A stretch of DNA of 64,000 nt. It comes from Microthyrium microscopicum. Its lineage: Eukaryota. The notes beneath the pieces were generated by a model, which was not told the origin of the DNA, did not search any database, and worked only from the letters and a program-made list of their open reading frames with translations. The DNA is taken from NCBI GenBank assembly GCA_010405405.1, contig MU004233.1, forward strand, positions 65,067 through 129,066, written 5' to 3'. Below are positions 1 through 64,000 of the stretch, piece after piece (position 1 is the first letter of the stretch; the number at the start of each line of letters is the position of its first letter). A program made the position numbers and the translations under genes.

Positions 1-2694
1 AACTATACTATATATCTTTAATTATTAGTTCTTAGGCTATAATAGTCTTTTAGAAACCCTTTATAGAGAGATATATAATAAAGGATAATTTCTTCTTTCT
101 TAAAATTAATATCTTATTACTATAAATTTAGCTTATCTTAGTAATAGTAGAAATATACTAGTTATTTTTATTTAGGGTCTTAATAAACTTTAAGTTATAA
201 TTATCTACTCTTTTATTATAATAAACCTTATTGCTAATACTCTTTAAGAGTATACTAGCTACTTTAATAGAATAATCTTACTAGAGTACTTATATACTTT
301 TAATAGTTAGGTATTAGGCCTAATCCTTCTATTTAGCGTCTTTAAAAATAACTTAAAGATTACTATTTTATAGAAAGCGTATACTTATAATATCTATAAA
401 TATCTTTTTAAGTTCCTTAAGAACTTCTAGAAGAGTCTTTATATATTATCCTATTTTAAGTTATAGAATAATAGAACGACCTTTTAGTTTACTTACGTAT
501 AGTTTAATATAAAAGGTAATTACTACTTAAGAGTATAGCTTTAGAGCTAGTATAATAGAATAACGTTAAATTGCTACTTTAATCTTATTAAGCTAATTAA
601 AGATAGTTTTAAAGAAGGTAAGTTTAGGGGTAGAATATTTAGCTATTAGAGGCTCTTCCTCTTAATAGAGAATATAGTCCTTTAGCTTAATAAGCTTCTC
701 TATAGTATTATAGAGGACTTATTTTAAGATAATTATTTCTAATCCTTTTTATATACCTTTTTATATTTTAGATAGGGATATTCTTACTACGTTAACTATA
801 TTAAGTAGTTCTAAAGGGCTACTATTAAGTAAGCTCTTATAGCTCTTAAAATTAGAGTCTTATTCTTTTATATTTTAGTCGTTTAGTTCTATTATACTTC
901 TAGCTATAATAATACTATAGCGCGTATGAACGTCTTACTAAAAATTCGTAAGTATAATCCTTAAGCCTTAGTAAAGGGGTTCTAATAGTTTATTTAAATT
1001 AAATTAATAAAGTAGTGCGAATTAAGCTATATAGAAGCTAAAGAAGGTCCTATAATAGCTATTTAAATAATTATACTATTTATATTATCTTAAATATATA
1101 AGTTATAAATAATATAATAGTAATTATAGTATACTAGTTATTTATACTATTTATTTTATATAAATTATTAAATATATTTAGATTATATTAAATATAAGTC
1201 TATTTTACTTATTATATTTATATATATAATAATTATTATCTTAGTTATTAAATAATTTTAAGTATTTATTTTATTTAAGTAATAATATTTATTATAAATA
1301 TATACTAGTTCTAGCTATTAATATTAGTTAAGTTATAAAGTATATTAGACTTATTTAAGAATTCTAATTATTTATCTTATTTAAAGAATATCTTTTATTA
1401 GCTTTATAAAAGTACTTTAATAGTTTATCTTATTTTATTAATTTAAATACTATAAGTAGTTTTAGTTCTAATTTCTATTTAATATATCTTAAATTAGTAA
1501 ATTTATTTTAATTATTCTAGATATTTTAAATAAATTAGATATTAAGTTAAGTACTTAGATATAGAACTACGTATTATAGTAATAAGTAGTTATAATATTA
1601 TTAAATAACTTAAATTAATAATAATTTTTTTATAATATAAGAAGTTTATACTTATTTTATTTCTCTTCTTTTTAATATATTTTTAAATAGAGTACTAAAC
1701 TTCTATAGTTTCTCTTAGCTTCTATAATTAAGAATTAACTACTTATTTTTATATTTATTAATTATTAAAAGAAGTACTAACTTATTAATAAAGAGAAATA
1801 TATAGCTTTACTTTAAGAAATATTTATATTTCTTATATTTTAACTTATTAATTTTATAGTATACTTATTAGTAAAGTAATTTTATATTACTAGTAAAACT
1901 AATATTCTTACTAGAGTATATAGTACTAAATTAACCTATATAATATTTTAAAAGTAAAGCTTAGTTCTAGTTAAAATTATTTTAAAAAACTTTAACTTTA
2001 AAGAATTTAGAAACCTAGTAAAGCTAAAAGAATACTAATATTTTAGTACTTATATATTAGAGGAAATAGTATATTCGTTTCTAGAAAGATAAGATTAGTA
2101 AAATAATAACTTTAATATTAAAGGAAATTACTTTTTATAATTAATAGTAGTTACTATTAAGAGTATATATTATAGAAGTAAGTAATAAGAAAATACTATA
2201 TAAAATATACTATAAAGAGAAGTATTCTATAAGAATCTTCTACTATTTTAGTATTATTACTAAATCTTTATATATAGCTAAAAAGTAGTAGTAAATTTAA
2301 TAATATTTCTTTCTAATACTACTAGAGACTTTTAAATCTATAAGCTAGACTTCTATAATAATTTTTAAGTTTATAGTTTTTTATATACGTTATAACTCTT
2401 TATAATTAATAATAAAAGATTTATAAAGTTTTTACTACTATTTATTATATAGTTATAAAGTATAAAATCTAAGAAACTATAGAAAATACTACTATTTAAG
2501 TATAATAATAAGATAAACTTTCTAAACTAGCTAAAAAGTATAAACTATAAATATTAAAAATAAATAGAGTTACTAGAACTAAAGTAAAATACTAAGATAT
2601 TATTATATTTCTATTTAGTTATTAATAATATTATATAGAGTATAATAATTACTACTTATAGTTATATATAGTTCTAAGTACCTTCTTATAGTTT

Positions 2695-3496
2695 TATTAA
2701 TAAAAGTTAAGCTCTACTAGTAGTCTTAGTAGGTACCTACTAGGATGTTAGTTTGTTAGTCTATATCTAATATATTAAGTTAACTTATTACCTAAGAACT
2801 AGTAGGATGGGAGCTAAATTTTAGTAGGAGCTAATAGGGATCTTAGCTTAGTAAAGAACATTAAAACCTCTAAGTCTTTAATAACTAATAGCTAACTAAC
2901 CTTCCTATTACTAGCTATCTAGCCTAATACAAATACTATCCTTTCGCCTATAGGTAAAAGTAACGAGTTTTATAGGTATTTTAAAAGAACTAGCTAAATC
3001 TATTAAGGTTTTATAGAGTTAGTAAGGGTAGAAGATATAAAACGCTACTTAAACTTTAGGTTATTAAGCTATACTTTTTATATTTAGGCTATACTTAGTA
3101 ATAAGGCTTTAATAATCTATAACCTATATATATTAATACTCGTCTTAACGAGCTCTATCTAATAGTGCTAGTTCTATTACTATAGCTAGCCTAATTAGGA
3201 AGTTATTATAAAAGTTATTTTTAGCAAAATAATAATCGCTTTATCTTAATGGCTATTAGGGCTAAGGTAATATAAATTACATAATAATATAGCCCTAGTC
3301 TAGGGCTATAGAACGATATATAAAATACGCGCTAAACCTAACTAGAAAGTAAAATAATAATAGAAACGTTTTTAATCTAATAATAAAAAATATTTCTAGA
3401 CTTATAGAATCTGCTAGGACCTGCTAGGACCTATAAGATTCTTTAGGACTACTAGGATATTTTCTCTTCCTAAGCTAAGCTTAACTTTTACTAATA
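2695..3496. mobile_element. possible small non-autonomous TIR element (RIP-degraded)
   Basis: 19-bp inverted ends match 18/19 (TATTAATAAAAGTTAAGCT at 2695; AGCTTAACTTTTACTAATA ending 3496). Interior is more GC-rich than the flanks, with tandem CTGCTAGGAC repeats at 3411-3430. Confidence 0.45.
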
Positions 3497-3841
3497 TTAA
3501 GATTTATTAAGCTTAAATTTTTTTTACTTTTTTTTTATATATTTTCCTTTACTATTTAGTATACTAGGTTTTATAAGTAATCTATTTTCTAGTCTACTTT
3601 ATAGCTATAGAAAAAGACTTATAGCTATACTATAATATTTATTTCTCTAAAAAGAAAAACTACTTAAATAGTTATAAAAGTTAAAATAAGCTAAGTATTT
3701 CTAGATTTTAATATAATTTAATATATAAAACTTATTTCTTTAAGCTTAGAAACTTAATATAATAAGCTTCTACGTTACTAGATCTAAATTATAGAATATT
3801 ACTAATAATTTCTACTAAATCTTTTTAAAGCTTTAGCTTTA

Positions 3842-6800
3842 GATCGTTATTAATTTCCTACTAATAACTATCTTATTTTCCTACCCTTTTTAATTAATTT
3901 CCTACTCCTTTCTAAAGATTAGGCGCTTTACCTAAATAGGATAAAATTAATTACCTATTTAGAGTAGTAGTAATTAGGGAATAGTTATTTAAGTCTACAA
4001 AGTTAATCTTACTACTAAATCTTACTACTAGATCTCTCTATAGGTTATATTTTAAAGTAGTAATTTAATAATAATTTAATAATTACTAGACTAAATTTAA
4101 TACTTTTAAAGCCTAAATATTACTAAATTATACTACTACTACCTCTTCCTTATCCGCGCCCTCTACTAGATCCTCTTAGTCGTCCCTTACCTCTTCCTCT
4201 ACTTCTCTCTAGTCCTAGCGGAGTTATAGTTATAGTATATAATTACTCTTTAAGAGCTTAAATTTAAAGGCGTAATTCCTAGTTCTCCTTCTATTTATAC
4301 GTTAATTTAGTACGCTATTTAAGTAATTATAAACGTACCTCTACTACGTAGCGTTTAGATAATAGTTCTTTAAAATTAGACAATTCTTCTAAATCTAATT
4401 ACTAAAGATTATCGTCTTAATAAAGCTATTCTAATATCTCTTACTCTATAAGATTAAGAAGCTTATTAAAGGTATTAATATCTTTAGCTTAAGATCTAGT
4501 AATAGGCTATTTAATAGCAGGTAGTTTAATAATAGGTAGCCTTATAGTATTTAAAGCGCTACTAATAGCATCTTCTTCCTAATATAAAGGATCTTAATAA
4601 GTTATATTTCGCTATAAAGCTAGTTAAGGACGTCTACTACTTTGAACGACGTTAGGAGGTAGGATTATTAGTATTCTCTCTACTCTTTAAGGTAGTAGAA
4701 AGAGTAGTAAATTAGTATTTAGCCTTAAGTTACTATTTACTATAGTAAGCTCTAGTAAAGCAAGTTGAATTAAAGGTTGCTCTCTACCTACGAGTATATA
4801 GAATCTTAATTAATCTAAGAACTAGTACTTATTAACGTAATTAACTAAAGATAACTACTATTTAGGATCTCTATAAAGGTAACGTTAAATGGTGTAATTA
4901 TAAGGAAGACTATAAATATCTTTAAAAGCTTTAGAATAGTAGCTTTAATAAATAGAAGTAAGATCTTCTTTATCTTTAAACTTACGATACTATTTAGTAA
5001 TATGCTCTAGAGTATAGTTTAATACTAGCTTAAACGCATCTATAGAAACGATAGGAAGAGCTTTTAGCTTTAGATTAAATCGCTCTTAAATTAATTTAAT
5101 ACTAAAAATACCCTTAAGCTTTAAAAGCTAATTATTAGATACTTTATAGAGTATCTTTACTACTATATCTAGGTCTCTACGATAAGTAACAAGCTAGTCT
5201 TTTATACTACTATAAAGACCCTCTAATAATAAAGTTATAATATATCTATAATATTAAAACTAATTAATATAGGCCTTTACGAAGTATTGCTTCTTAACGA
5301 GCTATATTATTTAAAGATAGAAGATAAGATCTAGCTAAGATATACTAAAAATACGCTAAAAATTAGCCTATTCTCGCTCGTATTTATCTACTATGCTAGC
5401 TTTAATAATCTAATACTATAATATTAGCTATAGAATAGGTAGAAAGAGTAGAATTACCTTTTTCTAGAGAGATATAACTTATTTACGGTCTTAAATGATT
5501 CTATAATATTCTAAGGACTCTAAGTCAAGATATTAAAATTTAAAGCACTTATTAATATAGGATTTAATAGCCTTATTAATATACTACTAGCAAAGAAGCT
5601 AAGGTACTTATTTAAAGTCTATATCCTTCTTTAGAGCGTTTTTTAGTGCTTAGTAATCATTAGTAAGTATAACATCTAGTAGATTTATTAACGGGCGTAG
5701 TAGCTCTAGTAAATTATCGTTATTACTAGCTTCTTCGTTGCTATTAAGCTAAGCTTTATTATTAGGCTAAGAATAAATTAAATAAGAGCGTATAAATATC
5801 TAGAGGGCCTATATATAATCTTCTTCTAATTTGCTAGACATCTAGATAAAAGTAACTAAGTAGAAGTAGTTTATTAGCGTAATAGATCTAATATAAAGCA
5901 ATAGTATATTATAGCAGTTTGTGTAGTATATATAATCTATAAGAAGCACTTTAGGATATTCTTAATATAAAGTAACCTAATCTCGTAATACTACTAAAAT
6001 TAACTTTAGCTTGCCTTCTTATTTCTAAATAGCAGCAAGATAGGATTTATCTTCTTTAAGATAATTAATAAGGGCTTTAATTAGTGTACGCCTATTAATC
6101 TAATTCTTACGTGTCCTTACTCGTTAATTATAAACGTTTTATAGAGTAAAAGTAGTTCCTAGATACGCTATTTAAAGCTCTAAGATAATAATACTAAGCT
6201 TCACGCTAGTAGCTAACATTCTAGTAATAGTAGCTAATATATTATAATTTTAGAGGTCTATTCTTTAATAATCTTCGTACGTAGCTAGTTCTAGTAAAGA
6301 AATATAATTATATAGTTTAAGATGAACGTTAAGTATCTAAAATAGCATCTTTTTAGTCTTTTTAATCATTATAGTAAATTTATAGCTATAAGCCTTTAAA
6401 GTAGTATTTTTACGTTATCTAGTACTCTTTAAATTATAAACGCGTACGCAATTATAATAAAATTTAAAATGTATCTTATATTCTTAAAGGACGTAATTAG
6501 GCTTTAATTATAGCTTCGCTATATAATAACTATATTCTTTTACATGTTTTTACATATAGTTAATAGCTTCTTAAGTAGAGATAAAGGTAATAGCATTTTT
6601 AAGTTAAGAGATTTCTATTTTATAAAGTTATAGTAGTTTAAAGTTTAGTTAAAATATATAAAGATTTAGTATAATTATAGTAAGAGAGATATTAATTAGG
6701 ACGCACTATAACGCATTAAAAAGATAGAAACCAAAATAACTATTTCCTAATTACTACTATCCTAAATAGGTAATTAATTTTATCCTATTTAGGTAAAGCG

Positions 6801-6884
6801 CCTAATCTTTATAGAAAGGGGTAGGAAATGAATTAAAAAGGGTAGGAAAATAAGATAATTATTAGTAGGAAATTAATAACGATC
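3842..6884 (-). mobile_element. RIP-inactivated Mutator-like (MULE) DNA transposon
   Basis: ~150-bp inverted termini (3842-~3990 GATCGTTATTAATTTCCTAC...; ~6735-6884 ...GTAGGAAATTAATAACGATC). Identical 9-bp flanks TTAGCTTTA at 3833-3841 and 6885-6893. Minus-strand relics revert by RIP-type changes to MULE motifs D(C)(T)YxTNxYN(M)(P)LL(H)I (~5890-5940) and (Q)LLCx(W)(H)INK (~5570-5607). Confidence 0.9.
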
Positions 6885-9800
6885 TTAGCTTTATACTAAG
6901 ATTAAAAATTAGAATCTTTTTTAGTCTTTATTTAATACTTATTATATAATAAGATTAGATATATATAGTACTATAAGTAATTCTCTACTAGTAACTTATT
7001 TAAACTCTAACTATCTAGCTTTTTTTATTTTAAAAGTATAAAAACTATAAACTCTTTAAATTTTATAACTTTAAAGAATTTAAATTTTTACTTATAATTA
7101 AATAAATCTTCTCTATTCTTAATAAGAAAGTCTAGTTATAGAAATAGCTCTAATAAAGTACTTAGCTAAATACTTCTAATTAAATATAAAAACTATAATT
7201 TCTACTACTATACTTTTAATCTCTTTATAATTTATATAGTTTTAATTAGAAATAGAAAAAGTATTTAGATTTATTTAATAGTATCTTAAAAGCTTTCTAA
7301 AAGTATTAATAGTTTATTATATATATTAAAATTAATAATATATTTATTTATAAAACTAGTTTAATAATATTTTATCTAAATCTCTTTCTAGAATAAGGTA
7401 GTTAAAGTTTTATACTAATTAAAATAAATATATATAGTACTTATATTTTACTATAAACTAGAAAGATTAATATTATTTATAAAGTAACTATCTTTTTAAG
7501 TACTATAATTAAGTAGAAATAACTTTTTACTAAGTCTAATAAATATTCTTCTTTTTAAAAAGCTAGATTTAAACTATAACTCTTCTAGAATATTTAAAGT
7601 ACTAAGTATATATAAGTTTTATTTATAAATATTTAATTTTAAAGGTTTTACTAGTATATAACTAGCTAGTACGTTATCTCTATTTATTAATACTAATATA
7701 AAATTAGTAGTCTTTTTAAAATAGTAGTTAGTTATATTCTATATATAAAGATTAGTAGTAATATATAATTAAAGAAGCTAGAAAGTCTTAAAGTTTTACT
7801 TAATTCTACGTATAACTCTACTAGAAATATAATATAAAGTTATTTATTAGTAAGCTAGATTATAGTTATAGTATTTAATTATTTACTTTATAAATTTATT
7901 TACTACTTTTATAAGAAACTAAAGCTATAAAAAGAGTAAAGTTATTATACTTTCTAAATACTTTAAAAAAGTTAATTAAAAAGTATTATAAGTAATAATA
8001 ATTGTCTTTTTTAAATAAAGAAAAAGAAATAAATATCTTTATATTTACTAAATATAAAGTAAGTATAATATTATATAAATTATTTTATATATTTTTTTTA
8101 GCTATTAATATACTAATATATTACTTAATTACTAGCTAGAACTAGTATATTATAAATAAAGTACTTTATTTCTAGTAACTAGTAGCTCTTTACCTAGTAA
8201 ATATATATTTATTTTAAAATAATAAATAATTTCTAAATATAGAAAAACTATAAAATTCTAAAGAATATAAACTTTACTATTATTATTTAAAGTAATACGT
8301 ACTAATTATATAGCTTAAGTAAAATAAGTATAATTTAGCTTACTAAATAATTTTATTAAATAAAAATAGAAATATATATAATTATAAAATTAACTAAAGT
8401 CTTTTAATTATAATATAATATTTACTTAATAATATTTTTAGTTTCTTTATTTTTTAAATAAACTACTATATAACTTATTATAACTTATTTAATTATTAAT
8501 ATAAAGCTTTTTATAATATTTATTACTTTAGTAGTATTAAGCTCTAATATCTTTATATTACTTACTATAAATATTATAAAAGTAGTTTATTAATCTTTAG
8601 TAATTTATACTAAATTAGTAGAAACTAAAAGTCTTATTTTTAAAGAGAAATATATTAACTCTACTTCTTAAAATATTAAAATAATATATTTAACTTATTA
8701 TATAAAGGAATTATTTAATTAACTAAGTAATAAGTAATATAAAAAAATAGTAAAAAAAGTACTTAAGTTATATCTTAGTATAAAAGAAATATTCTTTTAT
8801 TAGAAAATATTAGTATTTCTAGTAAAAGAAATAGTTAAAATAATAAAGTCTACTAGTAATATAATTAGAAGCCTATACTAGATTATTTCTCTAAATATAC
8901 TACTAGTTATAGTATATAAGCTATTATATATAGTATATTTATTTATTTAATATATAACTACTAGTAATTTAGTATTTAATTTAGTATTAAAATTATTATA
9001 AACTATAGTAAGTCTTTATAATCTTTATAGTACGCTTTTATTTTAGTTTTTTAAAGTTATTTATAGTACTAGCTATATATAGCCTATTATTAAAATTTCT
9101 ATTAATTTTAGTAAGTAAATTTTTATAAAAAAATACTATAATTATAAAGTCTTTATATATAATTTATAGCTTTTTAATATAAATAGTAATCTAAGTACTT
9201 TAAAATACTAGCTTATAATATATTATTTATTTTAAGATTATAACTATTTATTACTCTTTAAAATTATATAGTAAAACTAAAGTTTAATAGAATTAATAAG
9301 TATTTTAAAGCCTAATACTATTATATTCTTTATTAATTTAATATACTTAAAATATAAAATTTTTAAATATAATAATAATTAAAGTTTCTAATTAGAAGGA
9401 CTATACTAGTAATAAAAACTAGTAATTAAAAAACTAAAGTATAAGTATAACTATACTTAAGTTATATAGTCTTACTTATATATTATAAAAAATATTTTAA
9501 TTTAAAAAAAATAAATAAAATAAATAATATAATTAATAGTTTCTACTTTTATTAGTTATAATATCTAATAAGTAGTATAGTTTATTATTAATTTTATTAC
9601 TTACTCTTAATATTACTAAGCCTTTATAATATTTAATAAAAGCTATATTATAGATATTTAATAAAATTTAATTAGGTTTAGTAATAGCTAGTATAATATA
9701 TAAAATAATACTATTTATTTTATTATTTAGTTATCTTTTAAGCTTTATTAATATAAGTATAATATAAAAAATCTTTTTATATAATATATAGTAGTATATA

Positions 9801-10031
9801 TAGTAGATTTTTACACTTAGCTAATTATAAGATATTATACTTTAGTCTTCTTAATTCTAGAAGAACGCTATAAATATTAATAAATTTAAACGCTACTAAA
9901 GGCTCCTATAGATATTAACCCTCTAGTCGTTTGTACCTTTTACGTACTATTAATTTTCATACAAGTACGACCCATGTTTACCTTCAAGTCGAGAACTTAG
10001 TACAAATCCTTATCATTTTAGAAAAGGAAAA

Positions 10032-15630: not shown

Positions 15631-17126
15631 TCAAGAACTAGTAGTACAGTTTTGTCTCGCATAAGCTCCATAAAATGCTGCAGCAGTTCTTTGGCTATAG
15701 GGAAGATTGTTGACGGTAACATTAGAAGCCCAGCATGTACTCATGTAACCGGTATAGAACACAAAACTGAGGCAATCGGAATGAGGCAGACAGCCTTGCG
15801 TGTAACACTCCTCGGCGGTGTCGACTTCAATGGTGACGATAGTATTAGCAGCTGGAGGACTGTCCGTGCCACCTCTGGATAGAAAATAAGGAGAGCAGGC
15901 TGATGAAGATGCGGATGCGGTGGAGCTTGTAGACGTCGCTGGTAGTAAGCTGGTTGACGATACAATGGCGCTGCTTGATGAGGGCACTGGTATGCATGAC
16001 CGGTCATAGAAGGAATATGGGCTTCCTGCAACTGCAACGAAGTTTCCAGTAACTGGAGCCGCGTACAGCAGGCAGGCACCTCCAGCCGCGAAGCTGCGAC
16101 ATGCACTATTGGCTAGACAGATGGCTGAGCAGGATGTGAAGTTGGAGTTTGCCAGTGTGTCATCGTAGAAAAACGCTTGTGGAGTTCCAGAGTCGTACCC
16201 GGGGGATCCACAGACTGCTGGTGCGGACAATGAAGTAGTAGGAGCACTGGATGTTGACGACGCCTGCTGCACTAAAACCGATGATGACTGCTGAAGTGAG
16301 GTTGACGGGGACAGCTGTACTGAGCTTGATGATGACTGCTGTCTTGAGCTTGTTGACGGCACTTGTGGTCCTGATGATGACTTTGTCGTTGGTGGCGCCG
16401 ATGATGTTGAAAGTACTGTTGCTTGAGAAGAGAACACAGATGTAGTTGACTTTGTCTGTGGCACTGATATTGAGGAAGATGATGTAACTTTAACGAGCGT
16501 GCTGCTTGCTGTTGATGTTGCTGCGATTGATTGCTTTGCTGAGGTGGAAGAGGATGATGCCGATATACACGCTTTGTCATAAAAGACATACGGGCTGCTT
16601 GTAATTTTGTTGACATTGCTTGCTCTAGTATCAAATTAGATTGGTTCTCCATGACTATTTGCATTCAACGGGTCGACAAAATAAATGGCGAGCCCCCAGC
16701 GAGTGTGATGTGTACCGCCGCACCTTATGAAGATCATACTCTCTAACTCGCATCGTATCCAATATTCCACTGTTATTTCTTCTTGTTCGAAAGGAAATAA
16801 AGCAGTTTATAGAAGAACGTAGCGGATGGGAGGCAACGAAGCTGATGGGAGCGTGCCATTTATTTTGTGCTTTGGATGGCATGCTGATTTGACTCTTACA
16901 CTGAGGTTGAATAGAGCAAGCAGGTACTGGATCCAACAGCAAAAGATTTACAGCTCGCATCATTCTGACATTGACCACTGCACCCAGCATAAGTCGCAAT
17001 GGAGGACTTGGTGCTAGAATAATATGCCGAAACACCTTTGTCATAACCGTTGACTCCACAAGATATGGATTGGGAAGAGACCAGTGTTGTTGAAAGAAAA
17101 ATAGCGAGCGAAATCGATGAAAACAT
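15631..17126 (-). CDS. secreted Ser/Thr-rich protein with three Cys-rich PAN/Apple-like modules
   Basis: ATG 17126 with signal peptide. Exon 1 is 17126-16900, the intron 16899-16625 and exon 2 runs to 15631. Repeated module CGxxGYD...C...C.....C.SFA.G..CLLY...SPY.FYD..C. Confidence 0.8.
16625..16899 (-). mobile_element. introner-like long hairpin intron (275 nt)
   Basis: GTAAG...CTAAT...TAG, frame-restoring. Perfect 14-bp inverted repeat at 16676-16689/16855-16868. Segment CATCCAAAGCACAAAATAAATG..CCCATC..TTCGTTGCCTCCCAT resembles intron 32816-32585. Confidence 0.6.
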
Positions 17127-31396: not shown

Positions 31397-33069
31397 TCAG
31401 TGAGCTTGAAGCCAACCAAGCATCTGTCCAAATGCTAGCTGTTGAGCTTCCTTGATCTTTGAATCCTCGTAATCACCCAATACTGCAAAGCCGTGGGGAA
31501 CTTCAGGATATACCTTGACCTCATGTTCAATCTCGGCTTTTTCGAGTGCCTCAACACCAGCTATGCGCACCTCATCTGGGAACAGTGGATCGTTTTCCAC
31601 GCAAACCAGAATAGTCGGGACTTTAAGCTTGCTGATATCCTCAGGGGCAATTTGTGTGCCGTGAGCGATGGCGCCAACCTTGATCACCGGACCGCTCGTC
31701 GCAGCGGCTTGCGATTCCTCATCGTCTTTTGGTGCTGCGCTTTGTGGTGTAGCATTTCCGCCTTCACCGCCAAGTAAGAGAACGTATCGCGCGCCAAAGC
31801 AGTAACCCACAGCATATATGCCACCTCCATTGGCAACAGCGTCTGCGAATTCTTCCTTGGCGCCTTCGATGACTTTGTGCAGGATGGGCAAGACCTTCTC
31901 TGGCGTGTGTCTGGCAAGCCACATATCTATCATGAAGGCTTTGGCTGTGTCGGCTACACCCATTTTGATACGCTCTAGTAAAGATAGCTCTGCGCCGGCA
32001 TCAGTGACACTGTTCCCAGTTGCCGTATCGCCTCCAAACCTAGAATTCCTATCAGAACCATTGTAAATATATGATTAGAGTTTCGACTCACTGATCTGGC
32101 ATGATGACCAAAAAGCCTTCCGAAGCAAACTTGTCTGCTTGTAACTGATTGTTTGCGGATTTTAGACCAGTACCTGGATTGATTAGTATGCATTGTATGG
32201 TTTGGGTCCCTCATAAGTTGGGAACCAAAAGCGGATTTTCATACCTCCTGTCAAAAGCAGAAGCAATTTGGACGGAGAATGCGGATAGTCAGCCGGCTTC
32301 GCGATGTACACCTTGTATGGTCAACTTGGAACTTTCGAAATGTATGACATGGGACAATGGAACGTTCATACATCGACGTCTCCAAGCTTCGTAAGCTCCT
32401 AGTTTGCGAGTCAATGTAAAGAGCTTTGCAAAACTCATGAAAGCTTACTCCCGTTGGCACCTCACCAGCAGCTATATCAGTTAGCATTGCAGAGTGTAAT
32501 AGTTTGGGTGGCATGTTTTACGTGAAGGTCTATCCGTTGTACAGTGCTCACCCATTGTTGGCCCAGTTTGAGCAACAGAGTCTCCTAGAAATTCTTAGAT
32601 CAAGATTGCGAATAAAGCTAACACGCGCTGAAAAGACCAAAATGGTCTGGTCAGGATCAACAAATAGAATAATCGCATAATCCATCGCATTCGACGGCAT
32701 CCATAGCATTCGATTAGAAACGCCTTATGGGAGCCATCGAATGCGATGTGGGACACATTGATTTTGTGTTCATTGGATGTCGTCAAGAAATGCTGTTTGA
32801 CACGGCGGAATCTTACCTGCAAATTGTCAATATACGATTACGACTAGACCTGACATGCTGGAAAGATCACTTAGGCTTTTCGTGCCGAAACCGTTAAACA
32901 CCCATTGCATTCGATGGTAGCCATCGAGTGCGATGGGAGACAAGATTACTTTGGTCCATAGCATGTCATCAAGAAATATAACTTAGCATGGAGGAATCTG
33001 ACCTTGAAATGGGGAGTCTTCAACAGCGTCACTTTCGGGAGCCTTGGTGGCAAGCTCTGGGTCGGACAT
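31397..33069 (-). CDS. dienelactone hydrolase family protein
   Basis: Exons reconstructed as MSDPELATK..FQ / GDSVAQTGPTMGEHCTTDRP / ... / VYIAKPADYPHSPSKLLLLLTGG / TGLKSANNQLQADKFASEGF / final exon with GYCFGA, ENDPLF and VPHGF (Cys-Asp-His triad). Confidence 0.88.
32585..32816 (-). mobile_element. introner-like intron B (232 nt), directly abutting intron A
   Basis: GTAAGATTCC...CTAAGAATTTCTAG. Hairpin CATCGCATTCGA...TCGAATGCGATG. Colinear similarity with intron 62712-62925. Confidence 0.8.
32817..33002 (-). mobile_element. introner-like intron A (186 nt) in the dienelactone hydrolase gene
   Basis: GTCAGATTCC...ATTGACAATTTGCAG. Core hairpin CCCATCGCACTCGATGGCTACCATCGAATGCAATGGG. First ~100 nt align with intron B. 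Confidence 0.75.
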
Positions 33070-33337
33070 GATTGTAAAGTTACGACCGGTTACAGTGAGG
33101 CACTGCGATAATTCAAAGTTGATATTCGAAGATGAAAGTGAAGGTTATGTAACTAATGGTGAGCATCTGCATTCGTAGACCAAACGCCTGGATGACATCA
33201 AATAGATAAGCGCGCGGCAGCTTCTTCATGCACGCCGCATTTATATATGCGCGGGCCCGGGCGGCTGCACTTTTCACATCAGGCATCTCGCGACCACCAG
33301 CGTTGAAGCATACACCTCATTCATTGCCGGCTATTCG

Positions 33338-46513: not shown

Positions 46514-47136
46514 GAGGCTTGGAGGTGTAGAGAGGGATAGAGAAAGATTGTTTCGTGATATGACTGATGATTTATGCTTACGACTGGGGACGAGAAATGA
46601 TGGACTAATTTAACTATCAGCTATAATGCATTTTTTAATGCGAGAGGATTGGCTCTGGTGGATCGGTTGACTGTACAATTCTTTTATCTACCTAGTCCAT
46701 CAAGCCCATTAAATTTGTTTGCCTGGACAACTTACTGGGCAACAAGTCGGCAAAATATGGCGCACCCCCATCAGGTTCGCCGACTCCAGACGCTCCGCTC
46801 TTGTATTGAGTTCTTCATTTGCCGTGAAGGACGCTTAGATTCGAATGAGTTATCGAATACGACGGGAAATATAGCACCTATTGCTTAAGGCCGTTGGTGG
46901 CAGCTATCAGAGTAGATGGGAGAGCGCCATTCGTTTTGTCACGTCGTTGACTGAGAATTTTCTGTTTTTCCTCTAATATGAGCTGCTGCTAACGAGAATT
47001 CACAGCCGCAAAAATGTTCGATTAGCCTTGAAGGTCAGCCTTATCAACTCAGGCATTGACCAATCACAACTGACAAGGCTGAAAGTGGGCAGGGGTTCTT
47101 TTCACGTGACTGCGCGGTTCTCCTTCGCGAACTTAG

Positions 47137-50981: not shown

Positions 50982-51709
50982 ATGAATCACTACGATTTCA
51001 ACGATCAGCATTACTGCAACCCCCTACATCACCACTCCAACATAGCTTGCCCACCTCCCTACCAGCAACCTAAAGTAATGCGAGTCGAACACAAGCCAAG
51101 TCTCGCTCTCCCAGCTTCCCACCATACCAGCAATAGAGGGTTTTACAGCCCGGCATCAGACGATACGTTCTTTACCGCCCCACTCGTTCCCGCCCAAGAC
51201 ATCGTTTCTCGCCCATCGCCTGCGATGGGCCCCAGAAGAGGCGATGGGGAAATCGCACATTTGCCAAGAGGACGATCCGCGAGACGAAGTGCGTTTCCGG
51301 GACGTGGAATTCGGCTGGGAAAGCATGTTTCTGAGAGGAAAAGAGATGACATGCCGTATGTTTCGATCGTTCCCAGCCTTTTGGAATTTTGCTCAAACTC
51401 CCATCGCATTCGATGGTTCCCATCGTATCTGTTAATTATCACCGTCGATGGGCGCCATCGCATCTGATGGGAAATTTGCGTTTTTTGCTGCCCATCCGTT
51501 TCCCTTTGAAATTCACTGTTCTGATGGTGCTAATGCGATAAATCTGCAGGCCAGCCAAGATCAAAATGCACATATATCTCATCAAGATGGAACTCCGATG
51601 GCTCAAATTCCAGAACAAACATCCCATTCTACGAAGTCAACGACGGATGGATTCGCGAGCTGGACGAATTCGACGGAAAATGGATCGATTGTTTGCCATG
51701 ACAAAGTGA
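50982..51709 (+). CDS. hypothetical protein
   Basis: ATG 50982. Removing intron 51356-51549 joins an open basic C-terminal exon ending at TGA 51707-51709. Confidence 0.5.
51356..51549 (+). mobile_element. introner-like intron (194 nt)
   Basis: GTATG...GCTAAT...CAG. Contains CCCATCGCATTCGATGGTTCCCATCG...CGATGGGCGCCATCGCATCTGATGGG, the family core in nested hairpins. Confidence 0.7.
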
Positions 51710-62172: not shown

Positions 62173-64000
62173 ATGTGGTTCCTTATCCGTGTAGCTCTGG
62201 CGGTAGTGACGAGCTTTGTCTCACTATCTTATGGTTCTCAAAGCGTCCTGTCTGCAGGAGATCATCATATTCCTCAAGCAGTAAGCACATAATCTCCAAC
62301 AGGAACCCTGCGCAGGTATATTAACAAGCCAGTGTAACGCCATTGAACTGGCCATCAATGGCGATGTCTACCACCGCCGTACATCCGAGTACAATGACCA
62401 GCAAAAGGATTACTGGCTACTGCAACAAGCAAAGGACTATTCGCCTCATTGCCGCGTCACTCCTCGGGATGCCAAGGATGTCAGCATTGCTCTGAAGCTT
62501 TTTGGCAAACATCAGACTCCATTTGCTGTCAAGAGCGGTGGCCATAGCTTTCTCTCCGGGGCTTCCAATATCAACAATGGCATTACGCTCGACCTATCGC
62601 GCCTAAATTCAATCAAGCTATCAGAAGACAAGCAAAGCGTTCGGCTGGGTCCCGGCGCTACCTGGAAGGAAGTCTACCAGGTCCTTGAACCACTTGGTCT
62701 CACAGCACTTGGTAAGATTTCCCCATTTGGCATCTGAAATGTCTTGACAACATTCGATAAACGGGAAAAACGTCGTTTCATCATCGGAATCAATGGTAGC
62801 GTTTCTAATCGAGTGCTATGGTTCCCACTGAGTACGATGAGCCCTCCATGGTTTCACCCCGAAAAGATATGATGGTTGTCTCGGGCGTGTTTGCTCTCAC
62901 TGTAATAAAATACTGACAATGCCAGGTGCGCGAGCCGGTAGCGTGGGCGTAGGAGGATTCATTCTCGGTGGAGGATCAACATGGCTCTCGAATCGCCATG
63001 GATGGGCAGTAGACTCAGTACTGGAGTTTGAAGTCGTTGTCTACGGCAAGATCAAAACTGCATCAAGCACAGAGAACCCCGACCTATTCTGGGCTCTCAA
63101 AGGAGGCGGCAGCAACTTTGGCATCGTTACTGCCATCGCAATGGCCACTCATCCCCTTGGCGATCTTTATGTCTATGGTCAAAGCTGTCCCCAAGAATCA
63201 GTACCGCAAGGCCTTAAGGCGCTACAAAGCTTCACTGACGCCGGCTCAAACGATACTGGCTCTAGTGCAATAATGGGCGTCATGTTCACTCCGGGCCAGG
63301 AAGAACTCGCCGCAGCCATAACAGTTGTGAATATAGACAACGACCTGAATGCTGAAGGCTTGAAGTATTTTACGGACATACCGCAGTTTCATGCTGACAA
63401 CTTTACGATCAAGTTGACTGAACTCAGTGATCAAATGAGCCAGTATGCTGATCGAGAATATCGGAAGATCAAATTCTCGATTACTGTACATAACAACGCT
63501 ACTCTTCTTGGTCATTTATTTGAGGAATTGGAGAATTTGGTCCGCGATCATGATCTTGATGATATGCTTGGTAAGTTCATTTCGTCTCAAGTGGATTCTG
63601 AGAGCATGCCAACATAAAGTTCGTGATTTACGTATGACACCTCGGCCAGTCTATTACAGCTCTGGCTCCCATTTTGCCATTCTCATGCGTAAATCAATGA
63701 CAAATTTCCGCTAACATCGTACAGCCTTGGGCACTAGCTTCCAACCACTCACCAGATCGCATATCAGCAACCGCAACAATGCTCTCGGACTCTCTCACGT
63801 CACCTCTGGTCTAATGCTAGTCTCCTTTGAAATCTACTGGTCGGACGCCGCCAACTCCACCTACTTCGAAAAGCTCTCCAGAAATTTACATGACAAGCTC
63901 TGCGCTCGGGCAAGCGAGAAGCAAATGCTGCACAGATTTACATATCTGAACTATGCGGCAAGCTGGCAGGAACCGTTCAGTGGCTATGGAACAGAGAGTT
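62173..64000 (+). CDS. secreted FAD-binding oxidoreductase (BBE/6-HDNO-like), 3' end beyond the window
   Basis: Signal peptide, FAVKSGGH, GARAGSVGVGGFILGGG, DLFWALKGGGSNFGIVT, FTYLNYA. Confidence 0.9.
62712..62925 (+). mobile_element. introner-like intron (214 nt) in the FAD oxidoreductase gene
   Basis: GTAAGATT...CTGAC...CAG, restoring LTALG|ARAG. 62799-62821 matches the reverse complement of 32701-32723 at 22/23. Confidence 0.8.

Follow-up and report, generated by a model that had tools for sequence, protein, structure and literature searches.

Two introner-like elements (ILEs) stand back to back, with no exonic base between them, in a gene of the fungus Microthyrium microscopicum that encodes a dienelactone-hydrolase-family protein. 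The gene is read from the minus strand of a 64,000-nucleotide (nt) stretch of contig MU004233.1 (assembly GCA_010405405.1, positions 65,067 to 129,066), which we call the window and to whose first letter all coordinates below refer. The two introner-like units, element A (32817-33002, 186 nt) and element B (32585-32816, 232 nt), lie head to tail at one nucleotide position between exons 1 and 2 and add up to 418 nt, and this whole stretch is removed precisely from the transcript. That A and B are two members of one ILE family stacked at a single gained position is well supported, and we think it reasonably probable that they came there by separate insertions and that their splicing proceeds in part by two steps.

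On the minus strand, exon 1 ends ..TTTCAAG at 33003. Element A then starts GTCAGATTCC, with GTCAGA as its 5' splice site, and ends ATTGACAATTTGCAG; its branch-like box is TTGAC, whose A at 32827 precedes the close of the 3' CAG by 10 nt. The base that follows, 32816, is the first of element B, which opens with GTAAGATTCC (5' site GTAAGA) and finishes in TTCTAG at 32585; its branch-like box is CTAAG, with the A at 32595 and the same 10-nt distance to the close of the 3' TAG. The joint at 32817/32816 reads CAG|GTAAG (..TTGACAATTTGCAG|GTAAGA..) with zero bases between the elements: by direct reading, the 3' AG of A runs straight into the 5' GT of B (an internal AG|GT, 32815-32818), forming a zero-nucleotide exon. 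A first-pass annotation of the window, made from the sequence, had placed the same ends and the same joint, and all of its coordinates and end sequences proved exact. In the five regular introns of the gene the branch A lies 9-12 nt from the intron end, compared with 10 nt in A and B, and two of the five use a TTGAC-type box. Judged by these motifs, each unit appears to hold a complete set of splice signals with regular-intron-like branch spacing, and each is predicted to fold into a central hairpin of its own (32937-32901 in A; a long nested hairpin, 32748-32683, in B; both on the minus strand).

The transcript data are the assembled contigs of one public run (X1), whose labelling as RNA is a guess. 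One contig of 4,797 nt matches this stretch with no mismatches and lacks six GT..AG segments; because six canonical introns are missing from it, we infer that it must stem from spliced RNA. It joins 33003 to 32584 and omits exactly 32585-33002, the 418 nt of A and B together. The other five absent segments are small introns of 52, 71, 60, 50 and 50 nt (32040-32091, 32174-32244, 32312-32371, 32399-32448 and 32472-32521, all GT..AG on the minus strand). Among the contigs of this run, none of at least 99% identity covers the inside of A or of B, and contig depth is next to nil in the bins 32586-32662 and 32817-32893; the host locus is compact and shows high expression in the run. The 4,797-nt contig extends past both ends of the gene, probably through overlap with neighbouring transcripts.

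The joints of this contig give a complete gene model. Exon 1 (33003-33069, 67 nt) comprises 22 codons from the start ATG at 33069 and base 1 of Gly23; exon 2 (32522-32584, 63 nt), placed by the transcript joints and the rebuilt coding sequence, begins GAGACTCT; and the remainder of the gene (31397-32521) holds the five regular introns and the last exon, with the stop codon at 31397-31399. The G that ends exon 1 and the GA that begins exon 2 together form the Gly23 codon, so the intervening sequence sits between bases 1 and 2 of that codon and the reading frame is restored across it, as had been proposed at first pass. The rebuilt full-length product has 323 amino acids (aa). A deposited 291-aa dienelactone-hydrolase-family protein (P0001), assigned by its source to Microthyrium microscopicum, is 100% identical to the product of the window gene over 213 aa, including a last exon of 100% identity. 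P0001 carries a PF01738 domain at 76.4 bits (E 3.1e-21) against a curated cut-off of 21, and a protein search with the host protein returned 1,500 matches at E <= 0.001, with PF01738 present in all of the best 120 of the 1,500.

The P0001 model begins at an internal ATG in exon 2 (32552, Met33 of the 323-aa model) and does without exon 1, so it lacks 32 conserved N-terminal residues, whose codons lie in exon 1 and at the beginning of exon 2. This truncation is likely to have been caused by the unmodelled 418-nt composite intron, and composite introns of the stacked type may produce N-terminal truncations in annotation. Orthologues of 322-330 aa (P0008, P0010, P0017, P0033, P0034 and others) have N-termini that align with the product of exon 1 plus exon 2, and the motif ..F-x-G-D-S.., which spans the joint, is common to them and to the rebuilt protein. 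Because these N-termini match the peptide across the two exons, exon 1 is a genuine, conserved, coding and spliced exon. The first-pass annotation had named transcripts starting downstream, with 33003-33069 left outside any exon, as a case that would undo its proposal; instead, the spliced contig uses the 33003 donor and the N-terminus is conserved. A non-coding leader is excluded as a description of exon 1, which encodes a conserved in-frame peptide. Further upstream, a TATATAAA box at 33240-33247 (minus strand), about 171-178 nt 5' of the ATG, is consistent with exon 1 being the first.

The founding paper on ILEs is said to be that of van der Burgt et al. in 2012. In Dothideomycetes, ILEs are described as repeated, long, structured spliceosomal introns at gained positions (Collemare et al. 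2013, PMC3609843; Collemare et al. 2015, PMC4457414). The elements described here share with them the occurrence of copies in unrelated genes, a length several-fold that of regular introns, canonical splice signals and a newly gained position. The third full-length copy, element C (62712-62925, plus strand, 214 nt; GTAAGATTTCC ... ACTGACAATGCCAG), was found by BLAST and profile search and stands alone as an intron of an unrelated gene, where the downstream exon has a FAD_binding_4-like match to PF01565 that is weak (E 5.5e-4) and below the curated cut-off. The 64 kilobases (kb) of the window thus contain three full-length copies in two unrelated genes, the PF01738 gene with A and B and the FAD_binding_4-like gene with C, and with 186, 232 and 214 nt these are 3-4 times longer than the 50-71 nt of the host gene's regular introns. 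A and B each run from GT to AG around a branch-like box, and in the contig they are removed as a pair.

The homology of A and B, also claimed at first pass, is borne out by an alignment over their full length at 77% mean column identity, interrupted by two larger indels. In leave-one-out single-sequence nhmmer searches of the window with B as query, A was recovered at 34.3 bits (E 5.7e-10, B positions 2-226) and C at 33.7 bits (E 9.1e-10, B positions 2-211); C as query recovered B at E 1.9e-9 and A at E 5.4e-6. The similarity among the three is far above chance and extends to the terminal bases on either side of the joint, and the zero-length spacing is therefore not an artefact of where the borders were drawn. 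Other contigs of run X1 match only the hairpin cores (32683-32748 and 32901-32940) at 90-99% identity and have unlike flanks, which points to more copies of the family at other genomic places.

For the remaining ILE trait, a predicted stable hairpin, the signal is uneven among the copies. The predicted fold of B reaches -72.8 kcal/mol, a stability matched by none of 200 shuffles (z -5.43), and that of A -47.4 kcal/mol, matched by 2 of 200 (z -2.14), against z -0.43 for C. Folded as a whole, the 418-nt stretch has z -5.36, and the central hairpins of A and B are predicted to persist as separate domains. A search of 32400-33200 against Rfam returned two chance-level microRNA-hairpin matches (20.9 and 20.3 bits, against gathering thresholds of 86 and 84) and no known RNA family in A or B.

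Within the family, A and B appear no closer to each other than either is to C. Over 185 gap-free sites, A has 23 unique changes, B 25 and C 29. With element D, a more distant intron-like stretch described below, as the fourth member, the quartet-informative sites divide into 4 for AB|CD, 5 for AC|BD and 6 for AD|BC. A 33-nt hairpin tip is common to B and C and absent from A, and another segment is common to A and C and absent from B. The pattern is star-like as far as these site counts and indels go.

Comparison with other species indicates that the intron position is a lineage-specific gain. We fetched 77 orthologous loci from metagenome contigs, none of them above 64% identity in the last exon, and 67 are informative; the 10 others have no N-terminal data, being cut by a contig end or belonging to a distant paralogue. 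All 67 informative loci have a contiguous stop-free frame across residues 12-30, the stretch that covers the Gly23 site (43 distinct peptides, the longest of 41 residues for the 19-residue query stretch), and none of the 67 has an intron at that site. The date of the gain is loose, since last-exon identity reaches only about 64% in the closest metagenome relative. Published ILEs have also been found within 15 base pairs of the intron positions of other species (PMC3609843, PMC4457414). Many of the orthologues (L005, L011, L013, L015, L056, L059-L066 and others) have an intron of their own right after ..S-M-G codons and before E-H-C, some 100 nt past the start codon. The window gene has no intron there, its next one lying 9 codons beyond the S-M-G position, at 32472-32521; the presence of this intron in orthologues and its absence from the window gene suggest that 5' intron positions have turned over between lineages.

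In the account that we favor, A and B would have arrived by two separate insertions at the same nucleotide position. An inserted ILE would recreate an AG|G junction on either side, and a resident copy would thus offer such a target twice. The first-pass annotation had been more specific: B would have been there first, and A would have entered precisely at the B 5' junction, AAG|GTAAG. AG|GT does stand on both flanks of A, and a GT also lies directly downstream of the 3' AG of copy C, and both points speak for that order; the reverse, with A in place first and B entering at the A 3' junction (CAG|GA), accounts for the locus just as well, however, and the near-identical tallies of unique changes in A and B are no help to either direction. 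Moreover, it is A that is shorter, lacks the hairpin tip, has the less stable predicted fold and carries a mutated 5' site. ILEs decay in length and sequence with age (PMC3609843), and by that measure the more decayed A would be the older resident and B a newcomer at its 3' junction. The flanking AG|GT sequences that were claimed for A are thus real, the proposed direction of insertion is no better supported than its opposite, and we regard the order A into B as possible but somewhat doubtful.

How the 418 nt leave the transcript can be considered separately from how they came to be there. Under one route, A would be removed first, which would regenerate CAAG|GTAAGA, that is, exon 1 joined directly to the 5' site of B, in a recursive step at a zero-nucleotide exon, with B to follow. 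Under a second, B would go first and leave A directly before exon 2, and A would then be removed in turn. A one-step excision from the 5' site of A to the 3' site of B could operate in parallel with either. None of the stretch that holds the juxtaposed 3' and 5' sites appears in the transcript contig, and removal of A would regenerate the 5' site. Since the units look self-sufficient, the internal 5' site is the stronger of the two (GTAAGA in B is more canonical than GTCAGA in A), and the 3' site of A is transcribed 232 nt before that of B, we infer that at least part of the transcripts, and by this reasoning a substantial share of them, would be processed in two reactions through the internal site. 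The state of the signals themselves points the same way. On the inner side, the first 9 nt of B are the same as the first 9 nt of C, and the 3' box of A is TTGACAAT against CTGACAAT in C; on the outer side, the A 5' site has a C at +3 and the B box is CTAAGAAT. By this anecdotal comparison, with C as its one outgroup, the internal signals seem at least as near to the termini of C as the outer ones, whereas redundant internal sites left to decay freely would be expected to show the reverse.

Alternatively, the 418 nt could behave as one long intron, removed in a single reaction from the 5' site of A to the branch and 3' site of B, with the internal AG|GT a fossil of the two insertions that is never or negligibly used. 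The complete 418-nt skip is the sole transcript form seen, the A 5' site is needed in any route, and an intron of this length should be manageable for fungal spliceosomes, given the introns of 375-391 nt that appear in the fungal literature on recursive splicing. Such a spliceosome would, however, have to pass over the GTAAGA of B, a better 5' site than the GTCAGA that it uses, and ignore intact internal signals no less canonical than those at the outer ends, as well as a 3' site that emerges 232 nt ahead of the one chosen; in addition, both documented fungal cases of similar size use their internal site. On these grounds we consider a silent internal site unlikely.

Recursive splicing at zero-nucleotide exons is familiar from the ratchet points of Drosophila. 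The first-pass annotation had presented the arrangement as if it lacked precedent, which does not hold for fungi: in Cryptococcus neoformans BOT1, a 375-nt intron is split into 210 and 165 nt by a zero-nucleotide exon (bioRxiv 10.1101/224170), and in Schizosaccharomyces pombe SPNCRNA.445 a 336-nt intron is split in the same manner (bioRxiv 10.1101/226894), both on experimental evidence. With these cases the locus shares a 3' site set directly against a 5' site, the absence of the whole stretch from messenger RNA (mRNA) and a similar scale (375 and 336 nt, compared with 418 = 186 + 232 nt). It differs in that intermediates, branches and junctions were measured there, whereas here the process is known from its final product, and in that the halves of those introns are not traced to one repeated element in the text available, whereas A and B are homologues from a mobile-intron family. 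The novelty therefore resides in the apparent origin of a zero-nucleotide exon from stacked introner-like elements; the splicing behaviour proposed here would not be new in kind.

Spliceosomal twin introns (stwintrons) are a second point of comparison, both in the strict sense ([D1,2] and related types), as reported in Hypoxylaceae (PMC9024468, PMC8469720), and 'sensu lato', with abutting donors, in Lipomyces (PMC7138796). Like them, the pair consists of two U2-type units that would be removable by consecutive reactions; the units of Hypoxylaceae also proliferate and carry internal symmetry, and for the L. starkeyi stwintron, too, removal in a single reaction is an alternative. In a stwintron, one unit is nested in the other and, in the strict sense, interrupts its donor, branch or acceptor, which makes the order of removal obligatory, whereas A and B lie side by side and would give the same mRNA in either order or in a single step: neither has a donor, branch-like box or acceptor broken by the other, and there is no overlap between them. 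We thus concur with the first-pass annotation that no splice signal is interrupted and that this is not a stwintron in the strict sense. The Lipomyces arrangement does not describe it either, as A and B are consecutive and not nested, with their donors 186 nt apart.

Among ILEs themselves, the published genes with two gained elements have them at separate positions (PMC3609843, PMC4457414), unlike the pair described here. Two ILEs abutting without an exon are not described in the main texts of the ILE literature searched, insofar as these were available (PMC4457414, PMC3609843, PMC9860276, PMC7789003 and PMC4540971 among them). Literature searches likewise returned no paper, within the text that they cover, in which introners or ILEs are connected with copies that abut or stand in tandem or with exons of zero length, and by titles and abstracts none that treats introns in Microthyrium microscopicum as its topic.

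A different origin for the pair would be local tandem duplication, in which a resident ILE was doubled in place, by slippage or by unequal exchange at the border AGG, and the two halves then diverged. Tandem genomic duplication is a known route of intron gain (PMC4457414, PMC8469720) and would give what is seen at the level of anatomy, homologous introns head to tail with AG|G borders; the 3-nt AGG microhomology at both borders (CAAG|G.. and ..CAG|G or ..TAG|G) would even fix the duplication on the intron ends. Against this, A and B have diverged from each other as much as either has from a copy in another gene: the scores of B against A and against C are 34.3 and 33.7 bits, with C 30 kb away, and AB|CD gathers 4 quartet sites where the other groupings have 5 and 6. 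Together with these figures, the unit-specific indels (the 33-nt tip and the segment common to A and C) would make any duplication about as old as the spread of the family. In Zymoseptoria tritici, moreover, fewer than 1% of the recent gains of single introns are put down to tandem duplication within a gene (Collemare et al. 2015, PMC4457414). Since A and B are not nearest relatives, a recent local duplication is less favored than two insertions or a doubling that dates back to the spread of the family, and we judge a tandem duplication to be rather improbable. Two further candidates fall more quickly: a micro-exon lost between A and B is excluded because no residue is missing between ..F-x and G-D-S.. 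in comparison with orthologues, and a dimeric A+B family unit because copy C is a monomer.

Several points weigh against the account of two insertions with partly two-step splicing. An old tandem duplication, of the age of the family spread, would yield the same distances as two insertions. The site counts depend on alignments at 61-71% identity: one of three MAFFT modes gave 15, 24 and 36 unique changes for A, B and C, and the quartet sites in this third mode were 4, 7 and 3 (AB|CD, AC|BD and AD|BC). The family consensus is drawn from three full copies in one 64-kb window; of these, C has no excess folding stability (65 of 200 shuffles as stable), and it is the single outgroup (n = 1) in the argument that the inner signals are the better kept. 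None of the six listed contig joints uses 32816 or 32817 and no splicing intermediate was seen, a lack that speaks neither for nor against two-step splicing because assembled contigs drop rare forms. Finally, the mature mRNA would be identical for every splicing pathway.

The window contains further sequences that resemble the family. Element D (51357-51549, plus strand) is a 193-nt intron-like stretch, GTATGT ... CTGCAG, that shares with A and B only a palindromic core of the CCCATCGCATTCGATGG type; as query it recovers B at E 1.5e-5 over about 84 nt. It carries two copies of the CCCATCG..CGATGG core of A and B, its ends differ from theirs, and it may be a member of another subfamily or a decayed copy. 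An additional core-like palindrome is found near 51205-51244. The profile search also matches the family core weakly (E 0.014-0.19) at 46803-47005 (plus strand) and 16740-16887; the former, 203 nt from GT to AG with a GCTAAC close to its end, may be another long decayed element. At the edge of the window, positions 1-10000 form an AT-rich block with a GC content of 14-27%, compared with 44-53% in the rest, which we take to resemble the AT-rich, repeat-derived isochores of some Dothideomycetes.

If A and B were indeed stacked by two insertions, the template for integration must still have held the resident intron, either as DNA or as unspliced pre-mRNA, and cannot have been spliced mRNA, since recombination with complementary DNA of a spliced mRNA would replace the resident copy and not add a second one. 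This would be of interest in that the introner families of ascomycetes are reported as an outlier without the transposon signatures seen elsewhere (PMC9860276). The locus would also be a natural example of a zero-nucleotide exon whose origin is readable in the sequence, unlike the documented fungal cases. More tentatively, ILEs might integrate preferentially at AG|G(T), and so stack and create zero-nucleotide exons, in which case stacked introners could be one source of recursive splice sites in fungi. Should the stacking be as we read it, this locus would constrain where and how fungal ILEs integrate.

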